Source: an uncultured Bacilli bacterium (lineage in GTDB: Bacteria; Bacillota_I; Bacilli_A; RF39; UBA660). From it: a stretch of DNA of 64,000 bases. Shown one piece after another: positions 16,517 through 38,623 of this stretch (its first letter is position 1; each line of letters begins with the position of its first letter). A program made the position numbers and the translations under genes. Location of the stretch: the NCBI GenBank assembly GCA_934120265.1, contig CAKOTU010000003.1, forward strand, positions 1,379-65,378. Direction: 5' to 3'. The notes beneath the pieces are model-generated. The model saw only the letters and a list, made by a program, of their open reading frames with translations. It ran no database searches and was not told the DNA's origin.

Positions 16517-18553
16517 ATGGTATCATTGTTATTCTTGTTTATTAAACAATTATTTTCTTTTATTGATAAAATGGTTATTTTTGTTATAAAATATTTATAT
16601 CAATTAATTGTTGCAATTGCAGATACAAATGTTTTTGGTAATTTAATTTATGATTATTTGGGAAGAATTTATATGTTCTTGTCAGTTTTTATGGTATTTA
16701 AGTTGTCAATATCAATTATAAATTATGTTATAAATCCAGATGCACTTTCTGATAAGAGTAAAGGGTTTGGTAAATTAATAACAAATGTAGTTATCTCTTT
16801 GATATTGTTAGCAATAACACCTAACTTATTTAACATGGCTTTTAACTTACAAACAGATATTTTGAATAGTAATGCAATCTATCAAATTATTACGGGTAAA
16901 AAATTAGCGACTGTAACTAAAAAAAACAATGAAAAGACATTAACATTATATGAAAACGCAAGAGCTAGTGCAGAACAAATTGCTTTTGGAGTTTATAGTG
17001 GTTTCGTTTATCAAGTAGAAGGTGAAGATAGTGACGATCCTTCTAAAACAGGAGACGCATTTGGTGCGTATTGCGAAGAAAAAGATGTTGCAAATGGTTG
17101 CGGAAAAACAGTTAACGGAAAGTTTGTTGAGCATGTTTGTGGGAATACAACATGTTTACTTGATGGCGATACAGTAACTAATTCAAATAATAAGTACTGG
17201 TGGTTGATTTCAACTGCTTGTGGATGTGTAGTGGTATACATTCTTTTAGGATTCTGTATTGATACAGCAGTTCGTAGTGTAAAATTAGGATTCTTACAAA
17301 TAATTGCTCCTATTCCAATTATGCTTAGAATGGATCCAAGTGGTAAAGATGATAAATTTCAAAAGTGGTTACAAGAAACTATAAAAACTTTTATAAGTTT
17401 ATTTATAAGATTAGCTGCTTTATTCTTTGCAACAGAAATAATAAGAACAGTAATGACTCCAAACAATGGGACTATGACTTCCTATGCTGGTGCTACTCAA
17501 GTTGGTGGTGGAGGACTAACTGGAGTCTTTGTACAAGTGTTTATCGTAATAGGCTGTTTATTATTTGCTAAACAATTCCCACAACTACTTAGTGATATAT
17601 TAGGAATTAAATTAGATGGTGATGGATTTAGCCTTAAGAAGAAAATGGGAGGTATTCCTGGTTTAGGTGCTGCTAAGGTGATAGGCGCTGGAGCTCTAGG
17701 CTTTGCTGGTGGAGCTGCAGCTAACGCTTATGCTGGAATTAAAGGTTGGGATAAAACAAAAGGTTTTTGGAGTAATGCCAATCGTTTAGGTAATAGTATG
17801 GCTACAGGAGCATTTAGTGGTGCTTTCAGAGGTGCTAGATCAAATGAAAAAAATATGTTTAAAGCAGCTGGTGCTGGAGTAAAAGGCTCTGTTGATGCTA
17901 GAAACTTAAGAGCTGAAAGAAATGCAACTGGCGATGGTGGAATAAAAGGCTGGGGTTCTAGACGTATTGCTGGACTTGATAAATTTGCAGGTGTGACAAA
18001 TGATGATACTGCAAAAATAGCTGCACAAAGACAATTTGGTGAGGACTTATGGAACAAAGTTAATTCTAAAGCGAAAGGATACGAATCAAAATATTCTATG
18101 GGCGGTAATATAGGTTCTGATTTTGGTAAAGCATGGAAGACGGCTGATGATGCCAAAGATTATAGAAATAAAATTAATTCACAATTAAGCATGGCTAGAA
18201 GTGATTTTCAGGCTGGAAAAGAAATAAGCTGGGGTGATAAAAAAGGAGCTGCTGCAATAGCTGCTTTAGAGGTAGAAAGTGCTAAAGCATCAGCTGCATA
18301 CGATAAGGCATCAGCCGACTTTAAAGAATTAAGAAGTATGCAGGAACATAAAACTGAGGCTACATATTATGATGCTTATAACGCTGCAGATGATAGACAC
18401 AGTGCTGAAAGCTACGCTAACAAGACGGTTACTGAATACTCATCATCAGACTCTCCTGCTTCAGCTCCTCAACATGGTCCTAATGGCAAAGGTGATCCTG
18501 TTGCTGGAAGACCAAATCCTAATACAAGTCGAAAAAAACAAAGAAGAAGATAA
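16517..18553 (+). CDS. VirB6/TrbL-like polytopic membrane protein with long Gly/Ala-rich C-terminal extension
   Basis: 678 aa. Multiple TM helices over the first 370 aa or so. Placed between the pilin-like genes and VirB3/VirB4. C-terminal 300 aa or so is G/A/K-rich low complexity. Confidence 0.6.
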   Translation: MVSLLFLFIKQLFSFIDKMVIFVIKYLYQLIVAIADTNVFGNLIYDYLGRIYMFLSVFMVFKLSISIINYVINPDALSDKSKGFGKLITNVVISLILLAITPNLFNMAFNLQTDILNSNAIYQIITGKKLATVTKKNNEKTLTLYENARASAEQIAFGVYSGFVYQVEGEDSDDPSKTGDAFGAYCEEKDVANGCGKTVNGKFVEHVCGNTTCLLDGDTVTNSNNKYWWLISTACGCVVVYILLGFCIDTAVRSVKLGFLQIIAPIPIMLRMDPSGKDDKFQKWLQETIKTFISLFIRLAALFFATEIIRTVMTPNNGTMTSYAGATQVGGGGLTGVFVQVFIVIGCLLFAKQFPQLLSDILGIKLDGDGFSLKKKMGGIPGLGAAKVIGAGALGFAGGAAANAYAGIKGWDKTKGFWSNANRLGNSMATGAFSGAFRGARSNEKNMFKAAGAGVKGSVDARNLRAERNATGDGGIKGWGSRRIAGLDKFAGVTNDDTAKIAAQRQFGEDLWNKVNSKAKGYESKYSMGGNIGSDFGKAWKTADDAKDYRNKINSQLSMARSDFQAGKEISWGDKKGAAAIAALEVESAKASAAYDKASADFKELRSMQEHKTEATYYDAYNAADDRHSAESYANKTVTEYSSSDSPASAPQHGPNGKGDPVAGRPNPNTSRKKQRRR

Positions 18554-18570
18554 AAAGGGTGTGATAATAA

Positions 18571-18891
18571 ATGAATCAATTTTTGATACCAGCAAACTCA
18601 AAGAAGTCAATGTTAATCTTTGGTTTGTTCAATGTAACTGATTTGATAATATTTGGAACTGGGATAGCGGTAACATTAATTTTGTTACCGATTCTCCCTA
18701 TTAGTAATTGGTTGTTTGCAACGATCGCTGTGGCACCTGCTGCAGTAACAGGATTTCTTGTATTTCCTATTGCAAATTATCATAATGTAAGAACTTTTAT
18801 TAAATCAATGTGGAATTTCTACACTAGTAGAAGAGTTTATTATTGGAAAGGTTGGTGTTTTAGCAATGGCGAAGAAAAAGCCGATAAGTAG
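18571..18891 (+). CDS. VirB3/PrgI-like small membrane protein
   Basis: 106 aa with two TM helices, immediately upstream of and overlapping the VirB4 N-terminal ORF. This is the typical Gram-positive T4SS arrangement. Confidence 0.5.
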   Translation: MNQFLIPANSKKSMLIFGLFNVTDLIIFGTGIAVTLILLPILPISNWLFATIAVAPAAVTGFLVFPIANYHNVRTFIKSMWNFYTSRRVYYWKGWCFSNGEEKADK

Positions 18892-19414
18892 ATATACTGT
18901 TGATAATATTCCTATCAAGAGTATAACGAATGGAGTTATTATTTTAAATAACAATTTAAAAGTTACAGGGATTAAGATAATGCCTAGAAATATTTTTATC
19001 TTAGATCAAGATATGCAAGATAGTATTATATCTAATTTAAAGAATGTATATAATATGATTGATTATGAATTTTGGGTTATAGCTGCTGATAGACCAGTAG
19101 ATATAAATGTTTATTTATCACAATTACAACTTTTATATAACAATGTTCAAGACAATGCTAGAAGAAAATTAATTGTAGATGATATTAATAAAGCTAATAT
19201 GTTTATGAGCAATAATGTTGTTGATACTGAATACTACTTATTGTTTAAAGAAAAGGATTCAGAGTTAATTCAAAAGAGAATTCGTACATTGATTAATAGT
19301 TTTGCTGGTGCAGGGTTAACTTGCAGGCAAACAACAAATGATGATTTAAGAATTATTCTTGATAATTTCTTAAATGGTGGACAAACTACTACGTTTGGGA
19401 CGGTGATGAGTTAA
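18866..19414 (+). CDS. VirB4-family ATPase, N-terminal domain encoded as a separate ORF
   Basis: 182 aa. The PIKSITNGVIILNN…IKIMPRNIFIL pattern matches the N-terminal domain of Gram-positive VirB4 (PrgJ/TcpF-type). The stop overlaps the next start (TAATG). Confidence 0.6.
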   Translation: MAKKKPISRYTVDNIPIKSITNGVIILNNNLKVTGIKIMPRNIFILDQDMQDSIISNLKNVYNMIDYEFWVIAADRPVDINVYLSQLQLLYNNVQDNARRKLIVDDINKANMFMSNNVVDTEYYLLFKEKDSELIQKRIRTLINSFAGAGLTCRQTTNDDLRIILDNFLNGGQTTTFGTVMS

Positions 19415-21198
19415 TGGATGTTAAAGCACAAGTAGCGCCTAAGGGTTTAGAATTTAGAGCAAGTGATTTTGTTATTAGTGATAAATGGGCAACTATATTA
19501 ACTGTTGTTTCTTATCCAAAATTTATTGGTCCAGGTTATTTGGCATCTTTAACTAGTATGTCTGGGATTAAGGTGGTTATTAAACATATTCCTCTACCAT
19601 TTAGTGTTATTACTAAGATGTTAAATAAGGAAATAGCTGATTTAAAGCAAAGATATCAAGAAGAAAATGATAAAACTATTCAAGAGAGGATTCGTCAAGA
19701 TTATGAATCATTAGAGTATTTTATTCAACAATTAGCTTCAACTCAATCTAAAATATATGATTTTCAAATGCATATTATGGTAACTGCAGATTCTGAAGAA
19801 GAATTAGTTAATAAAAAAATGCAAGTTAAGAACTATTTAGAAGCTATGGAAATGAGAGCATTCCCATTACGCTTTGAACAAGAAAAAGTTCTTAAATCAA
19901 TTTTACCTATATATAGTAAGCAAGATATTGAAGATAGAATAGGTACTCCTATTCCAGCTCCAACAATTGCGGCTATGTATCCATTTATTTTTGATAGTAT
20001 CAAAGATCCAGGATTATCTACATTATTAGGTGTTGATTTCTCTGGTGGTGTTATTCTATTTAATCAATTTTTATATCAAATAAAGAAAGAACATAATAGA
20101 AACAACGCTAACTTAATTATATTGGGTACTTCTGGTAGTGGTAAATCTACAGCTGCTAAATTAATGATTAGATCTCATATTCGTAATAATAATCAAATTG
20201 TTATTATTGACCCAGAGGGTGAATTTGAAGAAATGACTAAAATGTATGGTGGAGACTTTATCGATTTAGGTAAAGGTGGAGAATTTGGTATGATTAATCC
20301 ACTTGAAGTAGTAGTAGATGCAGATGAAGAAGAAATTGCACAAGGTTTGGGATATACAGTATTAACTCGTACTATTCAAACTGTAAAAGCATTCTTAAAA
20401 TACTATGATCCTAGTATTACTGAAGATACAATTAATATGTTTAGTGAAGTACTACAAGATACTTACAGAAGATTTGGTATTAGTTTTAATTCTGATTTTA
20501 CAACGTTTAAATCAAGCGATTTTCCAACTTTCAGAGATGTATATGCAACTATTGTTGGTAAAATAAGAGCAATGGTTGAAAAAACACATGAACGTGATGT
20601 TTTGGAAATGTTGGAATTAAAAATTAGACCGTTAATTAAAGAATTGCAATACTATTTCGATGGTCATACAACAATATCTCCAAAGAGTGATTTTATTGTA
20701 TTTAATATAAGAGAGCTTATGAATGCAGATTCTAACATTAGAAATGCTTTATTCTTTAACGTATTAAAATATGCATGGGGATTAACACTTGATTCAAGTA
20801 TTAACACTGTATTAATGGTTGATGAAGCTCACGTTTTATTAAGTGGAAATAACACTTTAGGTGCTGATTTCTTAGCACAAGTTCAAAGACGTGCTCGTAA
20901 GTATAACACAGGTACAATAATAATTACACAACAGCCTAGTGACTTTAGTGATCCAGGTGTTATAACTCAAGGTAAGGCTATATTTGACAATGCTTCTTAT
21001 TATCTTGTGATGGGACTTAAGAAACAAGCTGTTGAAGATTTGGCTAAATTAATTGATTTAAATGATAACGAAAAAGAAAGTATAAAAAAATATAATCAAG
21101 GTGAAGCATTATTTGTTTGCGGTAGCCGAAGAATGAGAATAAACATAATTGCAACAGAACAAGAATTAGATTCATTTGGTTCTGGCGGTGGTTTATAG
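19414..21198 (+). CDS. virB4: VirB4-family conjugation/T4SS ATPase, C-terminal ATPase part
   Basis: 594 aa. Walker A LGTSGSGKST, Walker B VLMVDEAHVLL, plus FIVFNIREL and IIITQQPSDF blocks typical of VirB4/TraE. Confidence 0.85.
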   Translation: MDVKAQVAPKGLEFRASDFVISDKWATILTVVSYPKFIGPGYLASLTSMSGIKVVIKHIPLPFSVITKMLNKEIADLKQRYQEENDKTIQERIRQDYESLEYFIQQLASTQSKIYDFQMHIMVTADSEEELVNKKMQVKNYLEAMEMRAFPLRFEQEKVLKSILPIYSKQDIEDRIGTPIPAPTIAAMYPFIFDSIKDPGLSTLLGVDFSGGVILFNQFLYQIKKEHNRNNANLIILGTSGSGKSTAAKLMIRSHIRNNNQIVIIDPEGEFEEMTKMYGGDFIDLGKGGEFGMINPLEVVVDADEEEIAQGLGYTVLTRTIQTVKAFLKYYDPSITEDTINMFSEVLQDTYRRFGISFNSDFTTFKSSDFPTFRDVYATIVGKIRAMVEKTHERDVLEMLELKIRPLIKELQYYFDGHTTISPKSDFIVFNIRELMNADSNIRNALFFNVLKYAWGLTLDSSINTVLMVDEAHVLLSGNNTLGADFLAQVQRRARKYNTGTIIITQQPSDFSDPGVITQGKAIFDNASYYLVMGLKKQAVEDLAKLIDLNDNEKESIKKYNQGEALFVCGSRRMRINIIATEQELDSFGSGGGL

Positions 21199-21227
21199 AA
21201 ATTAATTAGTAACGGTGGTGATGTTGC

Positions 21228-23468
21228 TTGAATAATAAAAATATAGTTGGTAATGGCAGTAAAGCAACATTACCAGGTGGTCAAAAATTATCTGATAAGA
21301 TTCAAGAAAATAAAACAAAACAAAGTTTAAATAACAATATTAATGGTAGTAATCTAAATGAAAATGTTGATGCTACTAAATCTTCCAAGGGTAACGAAGA
21401 AAATGGTGAAAATAAAAAAAGTAAATTAGATAATGTTACACAGCAGGCAGGAACTGAAGCTGCTCGTACTGCGCTTAAAGCGTTTGCAGCTTCAGCGCCA
21501 TATACAGCTTGGATACCTAAGGGAATAAGAGATAAAATTGTAGACAAAGTAGTAGATAGTAAACTTGGACAAGAAGCAATTGAAAAACAAGGTAAAAAAT
21601 TAAAGAGGAAAGTTGTTCTTGCTTTGGTAGGAGCTGTTGGAGCAACTCTTTTGCAAACGTTTCTAATTTGTGCTATTGTGGCAGCTATTTTGAGTCCAGT
21701 AGCGGCAATAAAAGATGCTTTAGGGAATGTTGGAGATTTCTTTGTAAGTGTTTGGAATATTTTTAGATATGGAGAGTTTTGTTCTAGTGAAGAAGCATGT
21801 CAAGAAAAATTAAGTAACAAGTACTATGAAAAACTTGACTCTAAGGTTGAAGATGCTTTTGGAAATTGTGAACAAATAGATACACAACAAGTTAAAGATT
21901 TAATTACAGGTACTATTTTTTACGATCAAATGACTTATGATTCTAAATATCAAGATTATCAAGGTAAATCTGATGACTCTAAAAAAGATGATAATGCCGA
22001 AGATGATGATGCTGGGGATGATTCACTGGTAGAAACAAATAAAGGCGGTTATTTTGACTATCGTGGTAAAAGGGGAAAAATTGGAGGTTTGGTTGATAAG
22101 TTAAAAAGTGGTGATTCAAATAGCTGTATATTGAATTCTTATACCTACCGTAATCATTTAACCAACAAGTATGTAGAAGAAAATTATGGCTATGTTTTAA
22201 TTGGACATTATAAAGATGATGTAGAAGGTAAGTTAACAATAGATGAAGTTGTTAATGAAATAATGATGATAGGTGGATTTGAAAATAAAGGTTCAAACGG
22301 TAGTTGTTCAAGTTCTTGTTCATATAATATTGATGGCGAATCAATAAGTGAATTAAAAGTTAGATTAATTAACGGTGTGTATTCTGATTCACCTGGAACA
22401 CCTATTGAAGGTGAGGAGTTAGTTCCTTTCGAAAAATATATTTTAGGTGTAGTATATGCTGAAGTTGGAAGTGGAGCTGCAGATGAGGTACTTAAAGTTC
22501 AAGCTATAGCTGCCAGATCATTTGCCCTTAGTAGAGCAAAAGTTATGGGTGGCGCTTTAGGTAGAGGAATAACTCAAGAAGATGGTGTATGGATTTTAAC
22601 ATTAGTTAACTCAACAGAGGATCAAGTTTATTGTGATCCTGATAGAGGCTGCTCGAAAGAAAGTGGTGTTAATTCTACTGTTTATTCTGATCCTGATAAG
22701 TATGAAAAATATAAGGGTCCATTATCCGCAGATGAAAGAATTCGCTCTGTTGTAGCTGAGGTAGCTGGTAAAGTTGTTTTAGATGCAAATGGTCAAATTA
22801 TAAATACTGGTTATAGAAGTACAAATCAGAATAGTTGGGCAGAGAAAGCCGCTGAAGGTAAAGATTATACAGTTATTTTAAGAGAAGATTATCCTGATTT
22901 CAATACTATTGATGATGGAAATTGTTCTTCATTATGTAGCTTGGCAATAGGACCTTTTACAGAATGGAAGCAAACGAGTTGGCCTGATGTATATATGAAT
23001 AATCTTAGCCTTGCAAAAGCTGGATGCTTAACTGTATCTGTTTGTATGCAACTAGCAAGAAGTGGTGTTGCCCCAGCTTTAGAAGGTGGTTTTAACCCAG
23101 CAACATTTGTTAATGCATATAGAGAAAAGTTATACAATGGCCAGGATGAATGGGCTTGGAATGGAATATCAAAAGTAGTACCGCAATTTCAATATGATTC
23201 TAGTTATAAATTAACTGGTATGCAAGGTCTGAGTGATGAGGAGCAACGCAATAGATTAATGAAAGGTATTAATGCTGGTTGTTATTATGTTGTAGAAGTA
23301 AAAAGCTACTATAAGGGTCAACACTGGGTTGCTGTAGATACAATAAAAGACGGTGAAATATATATTATGGATCCATCTTCAAACTGTAAAATTTTAAGCC
23401 AATGCGTAGCTAGTACTGGTGCTAAATATCGTATAAGTATAGCACAGTGTTATAGAGTAGTTAGATAG
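21228..23468 (+). CDS. T4SS-associated cell-wall hydrolase: TM anchor, SpoIID/LytB-like domain, C-terminal Cys-His peptidase-like domain
   Basis: 746 aa from TTG start after a ggtggtga RBS. SpoIID-like block YILGVVYAEVGSGAADEVLKVQAIAARSFAL. C-terminal AKAGCLTVSVCMQLA … GQHWVAVDTIKDGEIYIMDPS resembles C39-like/CHAP-type papain folds. Confidence 0.65.
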   Translation: MNNKNIVGNGSKATLPGGQKLSDKIQENKTKQSLNNNINGSNLNENVDATKSSKGNEENGENKKSKLDNVTQQAGTEAARTALKAFAASAPYTAWIPKGIRDKIVDKVVDSKLGQEAIEKQGKKLKRKVVLALVGAVGATLLQTFLICAIVAAILSPVAAIKDALGNVGDFFVSVWNIFRYGEFCSSEEACQEKLSNKYYEKLDSKVEDAFGNCEQIDTQQVKDLITGTIFYDQMTYDSKYQDYQGKSDDSKKDDNAEDDDAGDDSLVETNKGGYFDYRGKRGKIGGLVDKLKSGDSNSCILNSYTYRNHLTNKYVEENYGYVLIGHYKDDVEGKLTIDEVVNEIMMIGGFENKGSNGSCSSSCSYNIDGESISELKVRLINGVYSDSPGTPIEGEELVPFEKYILGVVYAEVGSGAADEVLKVQAIAARSFALSRAKVMGGALGRGITQEDGVWILTLVNSTEDQVYCDPDRGCSKESGVNSTVYSDPDKYEKYKGPLSADERIRSVVAEVAGKVVLDANGQIINTGYRSTNQNSWAEKAAEGKDYTVILREDYPDFNTIDDGNCSSLCSLAIGPFTEWKQTSWPDVYMNNLSLAKAGCLTVSVCMQLARSGVAPALEGGFNPATFVNAYREKLYNGQDEWAWNGISKVVPQFQYDSSYKLTGMQGLSDEEQRNRLMKGINAGCYYVVEVKSYYKGQHWVAVDTIKDGEIYIMDPSSNCKILSQCVASTGAKYRISIAQCYRVVR

Positions 23469-23479
23469 GAGGAAAGAAA

Positions 23480-24253
23480 ATGAGTAAAAAACAAATATTT
23501 CTTTTATGTATAGTAGTAATTGTTATTATAGCGTTAGGTTCTTTCCTCTTTATAAAAACAGAAGAAAAAAAATCTTACAGTTTATATTTATTTACTGGTG
23601 AGACAAAAATGGTTAAGTGGTATTATAACGATAGTAAATGGTATATAGTTAATACTAATGAGAAGTTGTCTGATCCATTTGATGTATACAGTAATGGTAA
23701 GTATGTAGGAAACTATGATTTAGTTTATAATAATAAATGGTATTATTTTGATGAGTATAATAAAAATGTTCAAATAGATGGTATAAAATTTATGATTAAT
23801 ACAAACTATAATTTTACCTCTTATGCATTTAATGTGGATTATAAAAAAAATGATGATTTAGCTGAGAAGCTTGCTGATCAGTTAAATATAAATTATAATA
23901 AATTTACTTATAATTTAAAAACATTTAAAATTTCAAATAATAATAAGTTAGAAACAATATATGCTGTTGACTTTTATGAAAAAGATGATGAGTATGCAAG
24001 TTTTGGACCTAGTTATACAGCCGTTTTTAATATATTAAATAATAAAATAAGTATTATAAAATATTTGGAATTTTCACAATCTAATAAAGATTATTGTAGT
24101 TTGAATGTAGATGGTGTATTTAGATTTGAAAATGATAATAATAAAATTTTATTATCTTGTACATATTTTGATCAAATACCATCGGATTATTATCTTTATG
24201 AAAGTAATAAAAATAATTATGAATTAATTGTTGATAGTAAAGGAGGGGTATAA
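23480..24253 (+). CDS. Membrane-anchored Asn/Tyr-rich protein of unknown function (T4SS accessory candidate)
   Basis: 257 aa. One N-terminal TM and an ectodomain of about 230 aa. Located between the hydrolase and the coupling protein. Confidence 0.55.
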   Translation: MSKKQIFLLCIVVIVIIALGSFLFIKTEEKKSYSLYLFTGETKMVKWYYNDSKWYIVNTNEKLSDPFDVYSNGKYVGNYDLVYNNKWYYFDEYNKNVQIDGIKFMINTNYNFTSYAFNVDYKKNDDLAEKLADQLNINYNKFTYNLKTFKISNNNKLETIYAVDFYEKDDEYASFGPSYTAVFNILNNKISIIKYLEFSQSNKDYCSLNVDGVFRFENDNNKILLSCTYFDQIPSDYYLYESNKNNYELIVDSKGGV

Positions 24254-24254
24254 A

Positions 24255-26432
24255 ATGAAATTAAAATTCAGAGCTGATGCTAAGGATATTCTAATATTTG
24301 TTATATTCAGTATCTTCTTGTTATATTTTGTAGCAATTGCTGTGGTAAACTTGGGTACTTTTGCACAAGAAGGTGTTTTATACGGATTAAATCCATTGCC
24401 TGCTTTTAGTAAGGATTATTTACTTGCTACTATTATGGGTTATATTTGTGTTTTAATTGCTATCATAATGAGTGTTTCATCTTTATTTTTTGAAAGGGAA
24501 AAAGGAATTGGTATAAGTACTGATCCAAAAAAAGAAAAAGGATACTCAAGATGGGCTACCGATAAGGAAATGAAAAAAGAATTAAAAATGGTCCGTGCTA
24601 AAGATTTAAAGAGTAATGCAGCAGGTATTCCTTTAATTAACAATGGTAAAGAAATATGGGTTGATGATGGTGAATATCATAACCTAATTATTGGTTCTAC
24701 TGGTTCTGGTAAAACTGAAATGATTGTTCAACCTATGGTTAAAGTTTTAGCCAAAAAGGGTGAGTCCATGATTATTACTGACCCTAAAGGTGAAATTTAT
24801 GAAAAGAACGCTGTTGAATTAAGAGAAAAAGGATATAATATTGTTCTTTTAAATTTCCGCGATCCGCAACAAGGTAATTGTTGGAACCCACTTTCTCTTC
24901 CTTATAATTTGTATAAAAGTGGTAATCAAGATAAAGCTTGCGAATTATTAGATGACTTAGCTTTAAATATCCTTTATGATGAGTCTTCTAAAAATCAAGA
25001 TCCTTTCTGGGAAAAAACTTCAGCAGATTATTTTGCAGGTTTAGCACTAGGATTATTTGAAGATGCTAAAGAAGAAGAGATTAACTTAAACAGTATAAAT
25101 TTAATGACTACTGTTGGTGAAGAAAAAATTGCAGGTACTACATATATCAAAGAATATTTTAGTTATAAAGATCCTGCAGGGCCTGCTTATGTTAATGCTT
25201 CATCAACATTAATGGCTCCAAGTGATACTAAAGGTAGTATTTTATCAGTTTTTAAACAAAAAATTAAATTATTTGCATCTCGTGAAAACATGAGCGAAAT
25301 GTTATCACATAGTGATTTTAATATGGATGACATTGGTCGTCAAAAAACAGCAGTATTTATTGTTGTTCAAGATGAAAAGAAAACATATCATTCTTTAGTT
25401 ACTATTTTCCTAAAACAATGCTATGAAACATTGATTAGAGTAGCACAAGAATGTGGGGGAAAACTTCCTTATAGAACAAACTTTATTCTAGATGAATTTG
25501 CTAATATGCCTCCATTAAAAGATGTTACAACAATGGTTACAGCAGCGCGTTCACGTGCGATGAGATTTAGTTTTATTATTCAAAACTTTGCTCAATTATA
25601 TGAAGTATATGGAAAAGAAAATGGAGAAACAATCAAAGGTAACTGTGGAAATATTGTTTATTTAATAAGTAGTGAGCTTAGCGCTCTTGAAGAAATTAGT
25701 AAAATGTGTGGAGAAGTAAAATCAAAAGAAAAGGATAAAACTGCTTCTACACCACTTGTAACAGTTAGTGACCTTCAAAGATTACCTAAATGGACAATGA
25801 TATTAATTCGTATTAGAATGATGCCATTTAAGACAAAACTAACTCCAAACTGGCAAATGATGCAAAATCATGAATGGGAGAAAGATTATCCAAAAGCCGA
25901 ATATCCTAACAGAGAAAAAGAACCGGTTAGTGTATTTGATATAAAATCTTTTGTTGAAAAAAGAAAAGAAGACAAAATAAATGCTATGTTGGGTGGAAAT
26001 ACTAAAGAATCTAATCCAATGCCTTTTGTACCTCCAATGTTTGGTGATAAAAATTCTAATTCTTCCAGTGGTGGATTTAATGTTGATGATTTAGTTAAAA
26101 AAATAGATGCTAAAATAGCAGAGTTAGAAGAAGAAGAACGACTTGAAAAAGAAGCAGAAAAAGCTAAAGAAAAATCTCAAGATGAAAAATCAACTCCAGT
26201 CGTTGAGGAAGAACCAAAGCCTAGAATTTCGGAGGAACTAAAATTACCTGAAGTTGAAAAAGAACCTCAAATTGAAATTAAACCAGAAACTGGATCTGAA
26301 ATTTCTGTTCCATCAACTAGTAAAGTTATAGAAGAAAATAATATAAAAGTTGAAAATACTGTTCAACCTGAAAGTAGTAAAAATATTACAGATGATCAAT
26401 TTTTCGATGACTTTTTCAATGAAGATGAATAA
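24255..26432 (+). CDS. virD4: VirD4/TraG-family type IV coupling protein
   Basis: ATG 24255 after an aaaggagggg RBS. Two N-terminal TM helices, Walker A IGSTGSGKTE, Walker B FILDEFANM, acidic/Lys-rich C-terminal tail. Confidence 0.85.
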   Translation: MKLKFRADAKDILIFVIFSIFLLYFVAIAVVNLGTFAQEGVLYGLNPLPAFSKDYLLATIMGYICVLIAIIMSVSSLFFEREKGIGISTDPKKEKGYSRWATDKEMKKELKMVRAKDLKSNAAGIPLINNGKEIWVDDGEYHNLIIGSTGSGKTEMIVQPMVKVLAKKGESMIITDPKGEIYEKNAVELREKGYNIVLLNFRDPQQGNCWNPLSLPYNLYKSGNQDKACELLDDLALNILYDESSKNQDPFWEKTSADYFAGLALGLFEDAKEEEINLNSINLMTTVGEEKIAGTTYIKEYFSYKDPAGPAYVNASSTLMAPSDTKGSILSVFKQKIKLFASRENMSEMLSHSDFNMDDIGRQKTAVFIVVQDEKKTYHSLVTIFLKQCYETLIRVAQECGGKLPYRTNFILDEFANMPPLKDVTTMVTAARSRAMRFSFIIQNFAQLYEVYGKENGETIKGNCGNIVYLISSELSALEEISKMCGEVKSKEKDKTASTPLVTVSDLQRLPKWTMILIRIRMMPFKTKLTPNWQMMQNHEWEKDYPKAEYPNREKEPVSVFDIKSFVEKRKEDKINAMLGGNTKESNPMPFVPPMFGDKNSNSSSGGFNVDDLVKKIDAKIAELEEEERLEKEAEKAKEKSQDEKSTPVVEEEPKPRISEELKLPEVEKEPQIEIKPETGSEISVPSTSKVIEENNIKVENTVQPESSKNITDDQFFDDFFNEDE

Positions 26433-26480: not shown

Positions 26481-27227
26481 ATGAAAGACTTTTTATTAAA
26501 TAAAAACACTGGGATACAATTTTATATGTTTAATATTACACATTTTTTTGTTTTGTTTATTACATATATTATTATGTTAATTATTCTATATAATAAGAAT
26601 AAATTAAAGAATATTAGCGATATAAACAAAAAAAGAATAAGAATATTTTTTGGTATTATACTTTTAATTTCATGGATAATTAGACGCGGCTCTTTTATTT
26701 ATTATGGCGTCTATAATATAAAAAATCATTTGGATTTAGGCTTTTGTAATATAAATGCTTTATTATTTATGTTTTATTGTTTAACAGGTAATAAAAAGGT
26801 GTATAGATTTTGTTATTATTCCACATTTGTTGGACCACTGTTATCCATTTTATTTCCAGCAGTTACAACAAGCATTAACAACTATTCTTTCATAACGTTT
26901 ATAATAAATCATAACATAGTATTTTTAATGAATTTAGTATTTTGCATATTTGAAGAATTAAAACAAGATGATAATAATGTTAGAATTTTTTTCTTGATAG
27001 GATATGCTTATGTAGTTTTTACAAATATATTAGATATTGTATTTGACCTTAATTATAATAAATTAATAGGATTTATATCTAGTAAATATGTCCAAAATGG
27101 TATAGTTTTATATATATCAAATAATTTGATCATTTCACTAATTATATATTTTTTGGTTGCATCTATATGTATATTAATTGCTAATTATATATTACAGATT
27201 ATAGGAGGAAAGTATGAAAAAAAGTAA
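26481..27227 (+). CDS. Polytopic integral membrane protein (possibly YwaF/TIGR02206-like)
   Basis: 248 aa with about 7 TM helices. TGtTATAAT -10 at 26458-26466. The family call is a weak recollection only. Confidence 0.5.
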   Translation: MKDFLLNKNTGIQFYMFNITHFFVLFITYIIMLIILYNKNKLKNISDINKKRIRIFFGIILLISWIIRRGSFIYYGVYNIKNHLDLGFCNINALLFMFYCLTGNKKVYRFCYYSTFVGPLLSILFPAVTTSINNYSFITFIINHNIVFLMNLVFCIFEELKQDDNNVRIFFLIGYAYVVFTNILDIVFDLNYNKLIGFISSKYVQNGIVLYISNNLIISLIIYFLVASICILIANYILQIIGGKYEKK

Positions 27228-28479
27228 TATCTTTAAGTTGTTGTTATTAATGTTATTATTTGTGCCTGTCACTATTTTGGCAGGTAGTAGTAATGATGAT
27301 GCAACAGAGTTACCAATTCCAGATTTTAAACAAGAGTATACTAACAATTATTCTGAAATTTATACTTGTGATTATAGAATTAATTTGTCTTCTGAATCTG
27401 TTTTTTTTGGGACTTTTGATTTTTCTATAAATTTTTCTAAGGCAGGTAACGGGGCTAGAATTATAGTTAATCAAGTTTCTGATTTTTCTGACTTAACTGA
27501 TTTGGATGTTAGTCAAGTAAAGGCTGTGAATGCTATAAAATCAATTTCTTATAATAATGGATACTCTTGTCCTCGTTTAATGGCATTCCTAAAGGAAGAA
27601 GAAGATACACAGACTGGGAAACTTATAGAAATATTTGAAGTTAAAGATTATGATTCTACTGAATATAACAAATATAAATCTGGTGGAGGTGTAACTAACA
27701 AGTATTATGTGTTAAATAATTATAAAAAATCTTCTTATAATTGTAATTATAATAAAGATGATTGTAATTCTCAACAATACTGTAAATATGCCTTAGTTGA
27801 TTCTGGGCATAAAGAATATAAATGTGTAGAAGTAAAGTATGGTGAAAAGCAAACCCCACCAGAGAATACTACGCGTACAGAAGTATGTTCAGGATATGTT
27901 GAATCTATTTTTAAACAGACTCTTGAATATTCCTTTTCAGCTAGTGGCGCACTTCAAGTATCTTTAGGGTCTGGTAATTTTTCTTTTAGCGGGTCTACTA
28001 ATTTTGTTGATAAACAGGGACAGCTTTATGATTTATGGAAAAATGGTAAATGTTGTTCAAATAATAAATTAGGAATTAATTATAATACGGATTCAACAGA
28101 ATTATCTTGTGACAATTCTTCATCTGCATGGAATTATGATAACCCAAATGATTATAATGAAGATAAAGATAAATATAATCCGGGTGAAGACGTATCAGGT
28201 TGTGAAGTAGTACCTGAAGAGGTTCGAAAATGGATAAAAATATCTCTAAACTTTATAAAGTATATAGCTCTAATATTGGTAATAGTATTAGGGACAATAG
28301 ATTTTATAAAAGCTGCAGGATCAGGAGAACCAGATGCAATGAAAAAAGCAGGTCAATCATTTATAAAAAGAGTAATAGCAGTAATCATATTATTCTTACT
28401 TCCAATGATAATTGATTTAATACTACACTTAATCAATTTATATGGTTCAACAGATGATTGCTTTGATGTATTAAAGTAA
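27214..28479 (+). CDS. Signal-peptide protein: variable Cys-rich ectodomain fused to VirB2-like hairpin anchor (fusion paralog A)
   Basis: 421 aa. Signal peptide (LLLMLLFVPVTILAG), ectodomain of about 300 aa with many Cys, then GCEVVPEEVRKWI-TM1-DFIKAAGSGEPDAMKKAGQSFIKR-TM2-DDCFDVLK. Confidence 0.6.
   Translation: MKKSNIFKLLLLMLLFVPVTILAGSSNDDATELPIPDFKQEYTNNYSEIYTCDYRINLSSESVFFGTFDFSINFSKAGNGARIIVNQVSDFSDLTDLDVSQVKAVNAIKSISYNNGYSCPRLMAFLKEEEDTQTGKLIEIFEVKDYDSTEYNKYKSGGGVTNKYYVLNNYKKSSYNCNYNKDDCNSQQYCKYALVDSGHKEYKCVEVKYGEKQTPPENTTRTEVCSGYVESIFKQTLEYSFSASGALQVSLGSGNFSFSGSTNFVDKQGQLYDLWKNGKCCSNNKLGINYNTDSTELSCDNSSSAWNYDNPNDYNEDKDKYNPGEDVSGCEVVPEEVRKWIKISLNFIKYIALILVIVLGTIDFIKAAGSGEPDAMKKAGQSFIKRVIAVIILFLLPMIIDLILHLINLYGSTDDCFDVLK
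28171..28479 (+). repeat. Conserved 3' cassette, copy A (shared with 56212-56511 and 57416-57724)
   Basis: By-eye alignment to copy C shows roughly 18 mismatches over about 309 nt, including an identical stretch of about 105 nt. Confidence 0.8.
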
Positions 28480-30565: not shown

Positions 30566-31195
30566 TTAAAATTTTCCTCCGCCTCCGCCATGAGTTGTAC
30601 CACTTGATGATTCATGTGTTGTTGAACCACCTTGGGAATTATTATTGTTGTTATTATTGTTGTTGTTATTATTATTTGTACCAGCGTTACTTGTTGAAAC
30701 AGTACCAACTTTTTGGCAAGCAGTATAATCATTTAAGAAGCACTTGACACAGTTCATAGCATTTTTTTCATCATCAGGGACTAACACAGCGATCAATGTT
30801 TCTATGATCATGAACACTAAAAATACTACCACTCCTGCTAATAATCGATTAAGAAATTTCTTTTGTGCTTTTTTCATTTCATCTTCTTTTTGAGCAGATA
30901 CAGCTTTTAAAACATCTAGCATACCAGTAATGATAATAATAACAGGTGTAGCAATTTTTAAAATATCATATAAGCTATTTGTAAATTTAGGTAAATTTTC
31001 ATGAAATCTTATACCTCTAACTATATTGCCATCTTGAACTGCACTACCGCCACATGTAAGGTTTCCAACGAAGTCACTTTCTGATGGCTTAGAATTATTG
31101 TCAGCTTTAACTACTACTGGACTTATTATTAAGGTAAATAGTGATAGCATGACCAAACTAAAAACTAATAAATTCTTTTTCATAAAACTCTCCAA
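30566..31195 (-). CDS. VirB2-like hairpin protein with cleavable signal peptide and poly-Asn/Gly-rich C-terminal tail (orphan paralog)
   Basis: 209 aa. Signal peptide …VVVKA/DNN, TCGG motif, TM1-DVLKAVSAQKEDEMKKAQKKFLNR-TM2, MNCVKCF, then a poly-N run and GGGGGKF. Confidence 0.5.
   Translation of the reverse strand: MESFMKKNLLVFSLVMLSLFTLIISPVVVKADNNSKPSESDFVGNLTCGGSAVQDGNIVRGIRFHENLPKFTNSLYDILKIATPVIIIITGMLDVLKAVSAQKEDEMKKAQKKFLNRLLAGVVVFLVFMIIETLIAVLVPDDEKNAMNCVKCFLNDYTACQKVGTVSTSNAGTNNNNNNNNNNNNNSQGGSTTHESSSGTTHGGGGGKF
30638..30676 (-). repeat. Trinucleotide (AAT/AAC) tract encoding about 13 consecutive Asn
   Basis: Plus strand reads att att att gtt gtt att att gtt gtt gtt att att att, in frame with the minus-strand CDS. 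Confidence 0.8.
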
Positions 31196-33940: not shown

Positions 33941-35422
33941 ATGCCAGATGAGAGTTATTACAAAGAAAGAGGCGAAGAAAAAAGCTGGCCTAAAATTATT
34001 TTAATAGTTTTAGGAGCATTAGTGTTAGCACTAATCATATTTTTACTAATAAAAGGCTGCAGTGGAAGCAAAGTTAGTGGAGATATGGAAAATGATTTAT
34101 TAAATGCAGGAAAGGAATATTACCAAACAGATGAGTCTTTATTACCACAAGCTAGTGGAGAATGTAAAACTGTTACATTAGGTACATTAATTGAAGAAGA
34201 ATTACTAAGTTCTGATAAATACAGTAATTGTAATAAAGATAAAACATATGTTAAAGTTTGTAAGTTAGAAAGTGGAAGTTATCACTATCTACCAGTATTA
34301 CAATGTGGTTCAACTTTAGCAGATGATAATTTTACAAAATGGTCTGAAGGAACTGAAAGTGATTTAGTAAAAGATAAATCAGACGTTAGATTTACTTTTA
34401 AAGGTGAAGCTTTAGAAGTATCTAAAGAAAATTTAGCAACAGAAGAAGAAGGATGGGCTGATGAAATAAAAGGTTTAAATTATAAAACAATTTCATCAAC
34501 AACATACTATCGTTATAGAGATTTAGTTTATAAGTGGAAAACAACTACTAGAAAATATTATAGTGAAAATACTTTCTATATAAGTGCTCCGTCAAGTGAA
34601 TATACTGAATCTGAATCAGTAGGAGCAGGATGGAAGTGGTATAAAGCAGGTACTGCAACTGTTAATTCTCAAAGTAGAATTATGGCTCAACCATTCCAAT
34701 ACATATGTTACAATACTGCAACAGGTGATGTTGCTAAAGTAAATGTATGGGATAGTAATGGGCAACCACAAACTTGTGCATCAAAGGGTGCAAATTGGAT
34801 TAATCCAGATGGCGGAAGAACATATACATGTGGGGATCCAAAAAGTGGAAGTGCTGAAGCTTTAAAACAAGGCGGCCCAGATACCATTTGTGCTGCTTCA
34901 TGTGCAACAGGTACTTTAAGTAGTGATAAAAAAACTTGTACTTATACAACTAAGACATATTATCCAAGTAATGCAAGTAGTGCATCAGGAGAAAAAACTT
35001 ATTATCAAAGTGCTCCTGCAAGTGGTTTAGTTAAAGATGAAAGTACTGTAGCGCAAGTTTCAAAATGGTTTAAGACAATTACAAATGTAACTGATAAGTA
35101 TTATGCTACAGCTCCTTCAACAGGTGCTACAAAAGCAAGTGATGGTGTTTGGGGAAATTGGAGTAATTATCAAACAGCTCAACCAAAAGCTTATTCAGGT
35201 ACTAGACAAATTGAAAGTAGAATTAAGGTAAAATATCAAAAAATAACTGAGGTTAATGGTGCTAGCATATGGAAAGCTATTACTGATGGTTATGTTTCAG
35301 AAAGTGAATTAATTAGTGCTTTCCAAGCTGCTAATTATCAAGTTAACACTTTAAAAGAAATAGAAGATGCAAGTGATTTAAGATATCAAGTTAAATTAGA
35401 ATATAGAAATAGAAAGAAATAA
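33941..35422 (+). CDS. Membrane-anchored Cys-containing surface protein with internal YY-x-SAP-type repeats
   Basis: 493 aa. N-terminal TM. Membrane-proximal module (ESLLPQASGECKTVTLGTL … VLQCG) is paralogous to the one in 51238-52326. Repeated motifs: TFYISAPSSEY, KTYYQSAPASG, DKYYATAPSTG. Confidence 0.6.
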   Translation: MPDESYYKERGEEKSWPKIILIVLGALVLALIIFLLIKGCSGSKVSGDMENDLLNAGKEYYQTDESLLPQASGECKTVTLGTLIEEELLSSDKYSNCNKDKTYVKVCKLESGSYHYLPVLQCGSTLADDNFTKWSEGTESDLVKDKSDVRFTFKGEALEVSKENLATEEEGWADEIKGLNYKTISSTTYYRYRDLVYKWKTTTRKYYSENTFYISAPSSEYTESESVGAGWKWYKAGTATVNSQSRIMAQPFQYICYNTATGDVAKVNVWDSNGQPQTCASKGANWINPDGGRTYTCGDPKSGSAEALKQGGPDTICAASCATGTLSSDKKTCTYTTKTYYPSNASSASGEKTYYQSAPASGLVKDESTVAQVSKWFKTITNVTDKYYATAPSTGATKASDGVWGNWSNYQTAQPKAYSGTRQIESRIKVKYQKITEVNGASIWKAITDGYVSESELISAFQAANYQVNTLKEIEDASDLRYQVKLEYRNRKK

Positions 35423-35437
35423 AAAGGAGGTAATAGA

Positions 35438-37339
35438 ATGACAAATGAACAAATATTAGAAGAATTAAGAAAATTAAGAGCTCATAATTCAACTCCTACT
35501 TCTGGAGATTTAAACGATGTTAATACAGAAGTTGCTGAAATCGATGAATCAATCGCTGATTACAGTGAACGTATTGCTGAATTAGAAGCTAAAATTGCAG
35601 ATGTAAACAATTATCAATATAATAATGAAAATGAGGAAAGAGAATTTACTGTAGAATTATTACAGGAATCTTTTACTAGTCAACTAGAGACTATGGCACG
35701 TGAAGATGTAGAATATAAGAGCTTACAAGAATTAGCAACAAAAATATTTATTGATTATACTAAAGAAGTTGAAGTATTAAATTCTGAAATAGCAGCTATT
35801 GAAAGAAGATTTAGAAAGAATGAAGTAGCTGTAAGAAAAAATATTGGTATAAGACTTACTGATCAAGAAATTGCTGATTTACAAGCTGAGTTAACTGCGA
35901 AAAAAGATCGCGTTGCTTTATGCGAAAGAATGGAAAACGAATATGTTAAGGAATTACAAAATTATGGTGATTTAATTACAGCAAATAATCGTAAAAGAGA
36001 AGTTATAATTGGTAAGCAAGAACGCTTAAACAAAATTGAAGAAGATAGAAAAAATCATCCAATGACTATTGATAACTATAAATTAAGATTGGATAAAGAT
36101 GAATTGTTCAGATTAAAAGCAGGATTAGAGGCTTTGAAATCAAGAAAAGAATATATCACTTACAATCCAAATGAAGAGATTGATAAGTTAATTGCTGCTA
36201 TCTCTGCAGATAAAACTGTTGAAGCAACAGAAGAAAAAGTAGAAGAGCAAGTACCTGAAATGACTGAACCACAACAAACTGAATTACAACAAGAAGAAGA
36301 TAAATCTAATGTATTAGCAGGTTTATATGATGAGAAAATTGAAGAAGATGCACCTGTTGCTGAAGAGGAAGAAAAGAAAGAAAATGATACAACAGTAATT
36401 GCACCAGTTGTACCTCCATTCGAAGATGTAAGTAGCAATTCTGAGGGTGAAGGCGAAATTCCAGCTGAAGAAGAGAAAACAGAAGATGATGAAATAGAAG
36501 GTTTACTTGTAGATCCATCAGATCTAGATGAAGAGAGAGAAGCTGAAATTGAAGAAGCAAAAGAAGAATTAAAAGAGAAGAAGAAAGATAAAAAATTCGT
36601 TGCTTTATGGAAAAAATTCTCTAAAAAAGCAAAAATTATTACTGCTGCTGCCTTAGCTGCTGGTATTCTAATTATTGCACATAGTTGTAGTACAAAGGCT
36701 CCTTCAAAACCTGTAGTAGATAATTCAAAAGATAGTTCATATACACAAACTGTAGATGATACTAAAGAAGATAAAACAAATGATGTTATAGAAACACCAA
36801 ATACAGTAAATGATACTGTAGTAACACCATCAAATGAACAAAAACCTTCAGAACCTGAAATAGAGGCTCCAACAACTGAGGATAAAGGAACAACTACACC
36901 AAGCACTCCTTCAACTCCAGATACTCCTTCAATTCCTGATACTCCGATAACTCCAGATGTTCCAGATACACCTGTTACTCCAGATCCTGATCCAGAACCA
37001 GAGCCAACAAAAGAAGTAGAAACTGTTAAACTAGATCAAGGTGAAGCAGTAGCAAGTTTTGATGACATTATAAATGGAAATATCAATGATGATACAGTTA
37101 TTTCTCACGGAGATGAAGTTGGTAAAAAAACTGACGGTGCTGAATTAAAAGATTATGACGAAAATGGTCAAGCTGAAGTAGAATTAGAGAAAAAAGACGA
37201 AGAAACTAAATCTTCATCTACAACAAGAACTCCAGAAGAAATCAAAAAAGCCTTAGAAGAATTTATGGGTGGAGAATTAACATTCGATAACGATGATAAT
37301 CAATGGCTTGATGAAATACAAAGTGGAAAGACACGTTAG
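35438..37339 (+). CDS. Bitopic protein: N-terminal coiled-coil, acidic linker, TM, Pro/Thr-rich extracellular region
   Basis: 633 aa. Heptad-like E/K/L-rich first 260 aa, TM at IITAAALAAGILIIAHS, then a TPSTPSTPDTPSIPDTPITPDVPDTPVTPDPDPEPEP segment. Confidence 0.6.
   Translation: MTNEQILEELRKLRAHNSTPTSGDLNDVNTEVAEIDESIADYSERIAELEAKIADVNNYQYNNENEEREFTVELLQESFTSQLETMAREDVEYKSLQELATKIFIDYTKEVEVLNSEIAAIERRFRKNEVAVRKNIGIRLTDQEIADLQAELTAKKDRVALCERMENEYVKELQNYGDLITANNRKREVIIGKQERLNKIEEDRKNHPMTIDNYKLRLDKDELFRLKAGLEALKSRKEYITYNPNEEIDKLIAAISADKTVEATEEKVEEQVPEMTEPQQTELQQEEDKSNVLAGLYDEKIEEDAPVAEEEEKKENDTTVIAPVVPPFEDVSSNSEGEGEIPAEEEKTEDDEIEGLLVDPSDLDEEREAEIEEAKEELKEKKKDKKFVALWKKFSKKAKIITAAALAAGILIIAHSCSTKAPSKPVVDNSKDSSYTQTVDDTKEDKTNDVIETPNTVNDTVVTPSNEQKPSEPEIEAPTTEDKGTTTPSTPSTPDTPSIPDTPITPDVPDTPVTPDPDPEPEPTKEVETVKLDQGEAVASFDDIINGNINDDTVISHGDEVGKKTDGAELKDYDENGQAEVELEKKDEETKSSSTTRTPEEIKKALEEFMGGELTFDNDDNQWLDEIQSGKTR
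36890..37009 (+). repeat. Imperfect short tandem repeats encoding (T/I/V)P(D/S)TP units
   Basis: Iterated actcc(w)ga(t)ac(w)cc-type units, read directly from the sequence. Confidence 0.7.
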
Positions 37340-37613: not shown

Positions 37614-37657
37614 GACATTATAACAAATTTATATTAAAATTACATTGGGTGTTATTT

Positions 37658-38185
37658 ATGAGTAAAATTAAAAAAATTGTACTGGATGATGAATTTATAA
37701 AAATGGAGTTTGATGATAATGAGTTATCTATTCCTAGAAATCAAGATTATGTAAAAAAATATATGAGTAATGCATTATCAGAAAGTCATAGTTACTTAAA
37801 GAATTCAAGATTTTATAAATTTGGTGCTAAAGTAAGCTTTTATGCTATGATATGGAATGTGAGCTTGTTTTTGGGTTGTTATTTGACTAATTTTCTACCA
37901 ATAGAACTTATAGCAATAATTTATGGTGGCCTAAGTGGTTTATCTTTAGTTACATACAGCCTTTTCAAGTTGGCTGATACTGTGTCACTAGAAAAAGCTT
38001 ATAATAATGAATACTGGCTAAAAATAAGAGATACTGCAGTTAATAATGTTAATAAAGTCAAAGAACAAAAAAAGCAAAAAGTTGTTACTAAAACCATTGA
38101 TAGTAATAAAGTTGTAAAAACAAATACATTTCACAACAATTTGACTGAAGAGGAAGAAATTACAAAAAGTGGTAGAAAATTATAA
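37658..38185 (+). CDS. Hypothetical membrane protein
   Basis: ATG 37658 (MSKIKKIVLDD…). Two central TM helices and a Lys-rich tail. Confidence 0.5.
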   Translation: MSKIKKIVLDDEFIKMEFDDNELSIPRNQDYVKKYMSNALSESHSYLKNSRFYKFGAKVSFYAMIWNVSLFLGCYLTNFLPIELIAIIYGGLSGLSLVTYSLFKLADTVSLEKAYNNEYWLKIRDTAVNNVNKVKEQKKQKVVTKTIDSNKVVKTNTFHNNLTEEEEITKSGRKL

Positions 38186-38585: not shown

Positions 38586-38623
38586 AAAACTACTTTCAAT
38601 TTAATTTGAAAGTAGTTTTATTT
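38586..38623. terminator. Bidirectional terminator between ssrA and the convergent gene
   Basis: aaaactactttcaa-tttaat-ttgaaagtagtttt, a 14-bp stem flanked by A/T runs. Confidence 0.65.

Follow-up and report, generated by a model that had tools for sequence, protein, structure and literature searches.

Three genes in a 64,000-nt stretch of DNA from an uncultured Bacilli bacterium of the human gut (GenBank contig CAKOTU010000003.1; the whole stretch is called the window below) end in almost the same sequence of about 300 nt, and the parts upstream of it are different. These genes, called A, B and C, raised the question of how their 3' ends stay alike within one genome and what kind of protein carries such an end. 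The comparisons described below made it likely that the three products are secreted membrane proteins built of two modules and belong to a chromosomal type IV secretion system (T4SS) that resembles mating-pair formation (MPF) class FATA. One module, similar to a VirB2 pilin, is homogenised within the genome. The other module, an ectodomain, is exchanged as a unit, and docking onto the T4SS would be shared by the three proteins.

Three genes with a shared 3' cassette and dissimilar ectodomains

The three genes and the first copy of the shared part, which we call the cassette, were located as follows. Genes A, B and C were each found as an open reading frame (ORF).

27214-28479, + strand: gene A (421 aa), with a signal peptide, a Cys-rich type-A ectodomain of ~300 aa and the pilin cassette
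28163-28479, + strand: cassette copy A, consisting of the linker end, Cys, transmembrane (TM) helix 1, a charged loop, TM helix 2, a Cys tail and the stop codon
55438-56511, + strand: gene B (357 aa), with a signal peptide, a type-B ectodomain and the cassette at 56195-56511, in the first slot downstream of recA
56570-57724, + strand: gene C (384 aa), with a signal peptide, a type-C ectodomain of two beta-rich domains and the cassette at 57408-57724, in the second slot downstream of recA

A repeat search of the window returned the cassettes as a single family of three copies (28163-28462, 56195-56494 and 57408-57707), with 89% and 95% identity of the second and third copies to the A copy. The initial annotation had placed these copies on the + strand as the 3' ends of three ORFs, and this was confirmed. 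It had estimated about 18 mismatches between cassettes A and C. By direct count there were 17 in 309 nt, and the longest identical run was exactly the 105 nt that had been given. The B cassette differed from that of A at 35 of 300 nt and from that of C at 30 of 300 nt. At the protein level, A and C differed at two residues in the last ~100, as had been reported, namely S/Y before the Cys and D/N near the end.

The sharp boundary between conserved and variable parts that had been described was also observed. Identity in 30-nt windows, right-aligned from the stop codon, was 0.87-1.00 inside the cassette and 0.23-0.40 upstream of it. The fall to the random level of this 28% GC genome took one or two such windows (~30 nt). 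Similarity among the three genes ended at the stop codon as well. BLASTP among the ectodomains of A, B and C gave no significant similarity. A Y-x-CP motif, which had been listed as a landmark kept by these genes, was found in A and C and was missing from B. Gene callers place the start codon of B later, and B was retrieved via its neighbouring genes. As the initial annotation had stated, A was separated from B and C by 27 kb. In between lay rnr, smpB, der, spoIVA, a penicillin-binding protein (PBP) gene, recU, divIVA and recA. A shared its first 14 nt with the end of the TMEM164 gene upstream and was the final gene of the T4SS cluster.

Cassettes evolve in concert within a genome lineage

Cassettes were compared between the window and two related lineages, R and S. 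Lineage R consisted of L007 (T4SS locus, genes A_R and D_R) and L008 (recA locus, gene C_R), and its housekeeping genes differed from those of the window with a synonymous divergence (dS) of 0.3-0.8. Lineage S was a single 92-kb contig with a distant C-type gene after virD4 (L028) and a B-type gene after recA (L027), 28 kb apart. The dS of recA, mnmA and rnr between lineage S and the window was 0.43-0.45.

The cassettes grouped by genome lineage and not by orthologue. Identity within a lineage was 89-95% in the window, 97-99% in R and 98.2% in S, and identity between lineages was 82-88%. The three cassettes of R, which were 97-99% identical to each other, were just 82-84% identical to those of the window, orthologues included. 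The two cassettes of S had a mutual dS of 0.03 and were 84-87% identical to those of the window (dS 0.5-0.8). Cassette dS was 0.02-0.36 within a lineage (0.24 for A-C, 0.36 for A-B and 0.31 for B-C in the window) and 0.5-0.8 between orthologues, which was equal to or higher than housekeeping dS (0.3-0.7). Paralogues were thus more similar than orthologues, at synonymous sites too, and mosaic tracts were present.

Such tracts were seen most directly in a recent conversion in strain L009, whose flanks were 97.5-98.5% identical to the window. Gene C of L009 differed from C of the window at 6 of 850 nt in the ectodomain and at 28 of 305 nt in the cassette (Fisher p = 6.6e-12). The L009 C cassette differed by 3 nt from the cassette of the gene immediately upstream. 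In the case of the type-E gene, L025 and L009 showed 21 mismatches in the ~700-nt ectodomain part versus 36 in the last 305 nt. In the window itself, the differences between A and C were patchy, and the 105-nt identical tract had P ~0.012 in a permutation test.

The constraint on the cassette was then considered. Between lineages, its nonsynonymous divergence (dN) was 0.07-0.12 and dN/dS (omega) was ~0.1-0.15, similar to the ectodomains. In two distant A orthologues (P0075 and P0076), the cassettes were as diverged as their ectodomains. Among 54 family members, the median cassette identity was 0.76 whether or not the two members of a pair had the same ectodomain type, and cassettes were at least 95% identical in 16 pairs with different types. 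The constraint on the cassette was unexceptional and its identity was independent of the ectodomain type. Purifying selection alone cannot yield this pattern. At the level of sequence, these comparisons demonstrated concerted evolution of the cassette by gene conversion. This had been proposed in the initial annotation, and both the lineage-wise grouping and the L009 event were in agreement with it.

Ectodomain units are exchanged at two slots

Two slots were compared among strains, one after recA and the other directly after virD4. The recA slot held B and C in the window, L017 and L019, and likewise in L018, where B was frameshifted. In L009 it was occupied by E, C and D, and in L025 and at least seven similar contigs by E on its own. 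Lineage R (L008) had C there, and lineage S (L027) had B. The virD4 slot held A in the window and in L001-L006, A and D in lineage R (L007), a C-like type in lineage S (L028) and in L010, and a B-like type in L014. The slot directly after virD4 was conserved in at least six lineages. From these gene orders, the varying feature was shown to be the repertoire, with whole ectodomain modules replaced, gained and lost between strains of one species.

B and C lay in tandem after recA, and each was preceded by an 85-nt 5' block up to the ATG. These blocks were found at the following positions.

55382-55466, + strand: conserved 5' unit upstream of B, with an AT-rich hairpin and T-run, a promoter-like site (TTTACT-17 nt-TGTTATACT), a GGTGA ribosome-binding site (RBS) and the signal-peptide start
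56514-56598, + strand: conserved 5' unit upstream of C, 88% identical to 55382-55466 (repeat family)

The B cassette and the 5' unit of C together formed a conserved block of ~400 nt between the variable B and C ectodomains. In L009, the segment replaced relative to the window ran from ~10 nt after the start codon to the cassette start. Replacement thus has its breakpoints at the start codon and where the cassette begins, and the 5' block and the 3' cassette, both conserved, act as recombination handles around each ectodomain. The 45 nt past the stop codon of A still resembled the promoter/RBS block found between units, consistent with a downstream unit having been lost here and kept in lineage R.

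Two observations were made on the contigs themselves. In L018 (143-1164, recA slot), B was split into ORFs of 184 aa and 113 aa, which points to a pseudogene with a frameshift or else to an error in sequencing. The contigs L013, L014 and L015, which are from GTDB metagenome-assembled genomes (MAGs), and also L020 and L023, ended inside or just after a cassette. The cassette repeat systematically breaks short-read assemblies of this clade, so that copy numbers in MAGs are probably underestimated. The cassette family thus explains the breaks of MAG contigs at these genes.

Ectodomain types are old and show omega below 1

The 74 homologues fell into discrete ectodomain types (22 C-like, 12 E, 7 B, 5 D, 5 F, 4 A, plus more). 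These types are old and predate the species split, because each type of the window has orthologues in sister lineages. The type-A ectodomain had just 4-5 relatives among 5.8 billion proteins. Local hhalign of the ectodomain profiles gave mainly signal-peptide matches; C matched E over 84 columns with 95% probability, and C versus B reached 87%. This was a hint that the ectodomain types may be at most very distant relatives. One F-type entry, P0033 (71 member sequences), is labelled in nr as 'MAG TPA: hypothetical protein [Bacteriophage sp.]', and it is probably a chromosomal fragment that was mis-binned as viral.

Selection was measured pairwise by the Nei-Gojobori method with 2-5 sequences per ectodomain type. 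Omega of orthologous ectodomains was 0.15-0.19 between the window and lineage R and 0.27 for B between the window and lineage S. These values were far above those of housekeeping genes (0.01-0.03), similar to those of other exposed T4SS proteins (0.16-0.21) and below 1. The dN of ectodomains was 10-30 times that of housekeeping genes, a level similar to that of the cassette itself. The initial annotation had suggested diversifying selection on the exposed domain. The pairwise values gave no support to this, with omega below 0.3 for all orthologous ectodomain pairs (0.15-0.27).

The cassette resembles a VirB2-like pilin

The last ~95 residues of the three proteins consisted of a Cys, a hydrophobic helix, a short charged loop, KAAGSGEPDAMKKAGQSFIKR, with a net positive charge, a second hydrophobic helix and a Cys-containing tail. 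The isolated C cassette scored 27.2 bits against Pfam PF18895 (T4SS_pilin), whose gathering cut-off is 26.6. All 19 cassette variants from relatives matched PF18895 (19/19, best E-value 1.1e-8). In A, the match covered residues 345-403. A tblastn search of the window with the cassette returned three further pilin-domain genes.

15685-16041 and 16049-16387, + strand: tandem pair of short VirB2-like pilin genes (118 and 112 aa), whose homology to the cassette extends to the Cys residues ahead of TM1 and behind TM2
30566-31195, - strand: fourth pilin-domain gene (209 aa), with a signal peptide, a pilin domain and a poly-Asn/Gly-rich C-terminal tail

The cassette aligned with these three genes across the whole hairpin, helices and loop alike, and an invariant Cys flanked it on either side. 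The two tandem genes formed a repeat family of their own, with 82% nt identity over 266 nt. The C-terminal tail of the fourth product had 14 consecutive Asn and then a Gly-rich stretch, and the length of this protein was 165-209 aa among L001, L002, L007 and L028. In a rabbit-gut relative (L016, 2233-6258), five short pilin genes stood in a row upstream of the gene in the VirB6 position, which resembles the pilin arrays of Patescibacteria.

An AlphaFold2 model of C was made from an alignment of 22 sequences, with a mean predicted local distance difference test (pLDDT) score of 76. It showed a signal helix, beta-rich domains at residues 24-117 and 128-273, a disordered N/D-rich linker at 275-294 and a two-helix hairpin at 298-333 and 336-374. 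The anchor, which had been called VirB2-like in the initial annotation, matched this description in the PF18895 score, in the cassette variants, in the alignment with the short pilins and in the modelled hairpin. Two TM helices with a short charged loop, as in VirB2 pilins, were found, and both ends are predicted to lie outside. The N-terminal signal peptide in the sequence places the ectodomain outside. The size of VirB2 pilins (about 50-150 aa) was found in the neighbouring 118- and 112-aa genes and not in A, B and C (421, 357 and 384 aa). The National Center for Biotechnology Information family (NCBIfam) scan of A, B and C gave no significant family; the best was Mbov_0395 pilin-like with E = 0.35.

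The neighbouring T4SS cluster

The T4SS core was identified from Pfam and NCBIfam matches.

16517-26432, + strand: T4SS core

The order of the cluster was two short pilins, a 678-aa multi-TM protein, a 106-aa membrane protein, a split VirB4, a hydrolase with a SpoIID domain (746 aa), a 257-aa protein, VirD4 (734 aa), TMEM164 and A. VirB4 (182 + 594 aa) scored 361 bits against NF045975 (VirB4_plasma), a model from integrative and conjugative elements (ICEs) of mycoplasmas. VirD4 scored 286 bits against the CD1115-family model NF045973, with a cut-off of 250. A VirB4 ATPase, a VirD4 coupling protein and a cell-wall hydrolase were thus found in one cluster, as in a Gram-positive T4SS of the MPF-FATA type. 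Roles of VirB6, VirB3 and VirB8 were assigned from position and size alone, by which the 678-aa protein would be VirB6-like and the 106-aa protein VirB3-like. As for adjacency to virB6/virB4, A lay ~1 kb after virD4 in a slot conserved in other lineages, and B and C lay 27 kb away after recA. In all related lineages that were compared, the cluster was syntenic and had the same housekeeping genes on either side. Among the Pfam-scanned ORFs of the window, no relaxase or integrase family was found as a hallmark of a conjugative element, with several ORFs of unknown function remaining, among which a novel relaxase is conceivable; for the ORFs of 45099-51000 and 58316-64000, this result rests on precomputed Pfam hits of their L008 orthologues.

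Several features of the cluster were recorded in addition. VirB4 was apparently split in two overlapping ORFs (18866-21198), the 182-aa part corresponding to positions 101-276 of NF045975 and the 594-aa part to positions 296-891, and the split was kept in all related contigs. A TMEM164-family acyltransferase-like gene (26481-27227) lay between virD4 and the fusion gene in the window and in lineage R. Lineage S (L028, 5917-6001) was without it, and the fusion gene followed virD4 directly. A Tad/Flp-like pilus cluster was found directly upstream of the T4SS cluster (9798-15617). It contained an RcpC/CpaB-like gene, a CpaF-type ATPase (10584-11747), two TadE-like pseudopilin-type proteins (13758-14634) and a 323-aa protein without a Pfam or NCBIfam match (14646-15617). 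The adjacency of the two clusters recalls the pairing of type IV pili (T4P) with a T4SS in Patescibacteria.

Proposed explanation and alternatives

We propose the following build for A, B and C. Each protein would have a Sec signal peptide, a lineage-restricted ectodomain of 250-300 aa, a disordered N/D-rich linker and a VirB2-like pilin module of ~95 aa. As the comparisons above showed, gene conversion keeps the pilin module near-identical among the paralogues of one genome, and the ectodomains are ancient types that evolve separately. Recombination at the conserved flanks replaces, deletes or adds whole ectodomain units at the two slots. The pilin module may dock all paralogues onto the same T4SS assembly platform, or onto a pilus made of the short pilins. 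Such shared docking would explain why the module is uniform within a cell despite its drift between species. The ectodomains might be exposed as alternative modules for contact or recognition, analogous to two-domain fimbrial adhesins. The adhesin, tip or receptor-binding role suggested in the initial annotation is likewise a hypothesis. Incorporation into the pilus is suggested by the homology to the short pilins of the cluster, by the conserved slot after virD4 and by the argument from uniformity within the cell.

Several points weigh against this proposal. The T4SS genes are 27 kb away from B and C, and the full-length A, B and C proteins scored 22-23 bits against PF18895, under the cut-off of 26.6. 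A Foldseek search of PDB and BFVD with the C model returned nothing at E <= 0.001, and the A model (pLDDT 50) was too poor for a fold search, both of which bear on the role of the ectodomains. The cassettes of lineage R came from two different samples (L007 and L008), which we infer to represent one genome, and lineage S is the single-contig case. Homogenisation in the window genome was incomplete (5-11% divergence, dS 0.24-0.36). Conversion of the cassette and import of an ectodomain between conserved flanks are both homologous recombination and give the same mosaic. Finally, entry of the fusion proteins into a pilus, or their interaction with the T4SS, is a step that we infer from sequence.

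The strongest alternative was that the cassette is a generic two-helix membrane anchor on ordinary surface proteins that are not assembled by the T4SS, such as adhesins, exclusion or recognition factors or substrate-binding proteins. Its homogenisation would then be a neutral by-product of recombination between repeats. The distance of B and C from the T4SS and their own promoters are in line with such an anchor, and so are the sub-threshold scores of the full-length proteins. Moreover, the cassette profile searched against PDB sequences gave solely chance TM-hairpin matches, to rhodopsin. However, the cassette showed specific homology to the short pilins that open the T4SS cluster, down to both Cys positions and the loop motif. 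The conserved slot after virD4 and the match of every cassette variant to PF18895 also argue against it. A neutral by-product would leave unexplained the drift between species together with uniformity within the genome in three lineages. We considered a generic anchor possible and, on this evidence, rather unlikely.

Programmed antigenic or phase variation at high frequency, of the pilE/pilS type, would shuffle cassettes within a clonal population. Conserved flanks were indeed found around variable segments, the repertoire differed among strains, and one assembly had a frameshifted B. However, every copy had a promoter-like site, an RBS, a signal peptide and an intact ORF, which leaves no silent cassettes. 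In addition, at least six independent metagenome assemblies, which differed in sample and assembler, contained A, B and C with 0-1 mismatches, and no invertible element or repeat tract was seen. This explanation was judged very improbable.

Still less could be said for a history without gene conversion, in which very strong purifying selection acted on the anchor, or a recent duplication of the whole gene was followed by runaway divergence of the ectodomain. The cassette dN between A and C was low (0.009), as such a history would predict. However, synonymous sites were conserved within the genome too (dS 0.02-0.36), and orthologous cassettes of sister lineages had a dS of 0.5-0.8 and 12-15% amino-acid divergence. 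The ectodomain types have orthologues elsewhere and so predate the species split, and the C ectodomain was 99.3% identical between two strains whose C cassettes were 91% identical. An assembly artefact, in which short-read assemblers collapsed or chimerised a repeat, was hardly credible: several MAG contigs do end within the cassette (L013-L015; L020, L023), but the mosaic is not an artefact because A, B and C recurred in the independent assemblies mentioned above, where MEGAHIT, SPAdes and others reproduced the three genes from different samples, and the longest identical run (105 nt) fell short of k = 141, the value to which the prefix 'k141_' of contig names in several assemblies points.

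Returning to the two-module proposal, a bolder form of it can be stated tentatively. The ectodomain-bearing VirB2-like pilins might be tip or decorating subunits of the pilus of this chromosomal, apparently relaxase-less T4SS and serve as interchangeable modules for partner recognition, with conversion keeping new modules compatible with the platform. If this were true, they would be a widespread and overlooked class of T4SS adhesin-pilins in monoderm bacteria. We regarded this form as somewhat doubtful.

Other features of the window

A full-length SpoIVA was encoded at 43205-44680, with all three domains (E = 5e-111). A related MAG is labelled 'Tenericutes', but because of this SpoIVA the organism probably forms spores. 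A DUF5698/DUF2179 membrane protein was encoded by tandem paralogues (2874-3377 and 3421-3933, - strand) that were 72% identical over 134 nt. Four ORFs downstream of smpB (493, 633, 178 and 298 aa; 33941-37339, 37649-38185 and 38618-39514) had no Pfam family. The 493- and 633-aa ORFs, and a 175-aa ORF at the position of the 178-aa one, were conserved in L001-L003 and L007, and the 298-aa ORF lay outside the loci compared.

Spread and significance

A profile built from the six pilin domains of the window retrieved 9,421 representatives of 50%-identity clusters at E <= 1e-3 and 4,601 at E <= 1e-10. The 121 new top representatives comprised 49 with an N-terminal extension of at least 100 aa and a C-terminal pilin domain, 43 short ones, 28 with a C-terminal extension and one with both. 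This suggests that the ectodomain-pilin architecture may be common in metagenomes (49/121, ~40% of the closest family representatives). In the literature searched, no description of ectodomain-VirB2 fusions, or of a T4SS in this clade, was found.

Pili of Gram-positive T4SSs were long denied and have lately been proposed, in a 2025 preprint on PrgF and from the arrays of Patescibacteria. The present locus gives a concrete and testable proposal for how a T4SS might contact its partner, namely through strain-variable ectodomains fused to a pilin module. It is also an unusually clean natural case of concerted evolution on one protein module, with the other module exchanged between strains.

Comparison with known systems

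According to a T4SS review of December 2025, Patescibacteria are the one exception to the absence of VirB2 from Gram-positive systems (PMC12857230). In Patescibacteria, arrays of small, sequence-divergent PF18895/PF04956 pilins were described (Quinonero-Coronel et al. 2025, PMC12102498). Their T4SS is similar to the present one in being chromosomal and of the monoderm type, with VirB4, VirB6-like, VirB3-like and VirD4-like genes and no relaxase detected nearby (PMC12102498; PMC12857230). Several PF18895 pilin genes per genome, some in tandem beside the T4SS, are also common to both. However, the pilins of Patescibacteria are small and variable in the pilin sequence (mean 25% identity within an array), whereas in the window the module is homogenised and the variation lies in the N-terminal ectodomain. 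Patescibacteria are epibionts of the candidate phyla radiation (CPR), whereas the present organism is a probably spore-forming member of the Bacillota, as judged from SpoIVA.

The VirB2-like PrgF pilins share with the cassette two TM helices and a short charged loop, and their genes lie near one for a VirB6-like protein in a Gram-positive T4SS. They differ in belonging to plasmid-borne conjugative systems with relaxases, and no paralogue families or concerted evolution were described for them. The PrgF preprint (ter Beek et al., bioRxiv 10.64898/2025.12.18.695078) searched proteins of 50-150 aa only. Ectodomain fusions would have been missed by this survey because of that deliberately chosen size range, and any survey limited to pilins of 50-150 aa would miss the ectodomain-pilin architecture.

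Amplified virB2/virB5 paralogues are known in Bartonella Trw and in the T4SSs of Anaplasma and Rickettsia, where they are thought to broaden or vary surface interactions (cited in PMC12102498). As in the window, there are multiple surface-exposed paralogues of a T4SS pilus component. However, these are tandem small pilins that vary over their full length, without fused ectodomains or a homogenised module.

With regard to the pattern of evolution, the bab/sab (Hop) adhesins of H. pylori are similar, being paralogues with conserved 5' and 3' ends and a divergent middle (PMC4552749, PMC3960876). Gene conversion between distant loci, strain-dependent occupancy of loci and concerted evolution of the membrane-anchoring C-terminus are shared as well. 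However, H. pylori is a diderm, and its anchor is an outer-membrane beta-barrel without relation to T4SS pilins. The bab genes are clearly homologous in their divergent middles, whereas the ectodomain types here can barely be aligned or not at all. The FimH and PapG adhesins of the chaperone-usher pathway have an N-terminal receptor-binding domain and a C-terminal pilin domain that plugs into a common fibre. The likeness to A, B and C is one of logic and an analogy alone: the fold and the assembly pathway are unrelated, and the place of A, B and C in a fibre is a predicted one.

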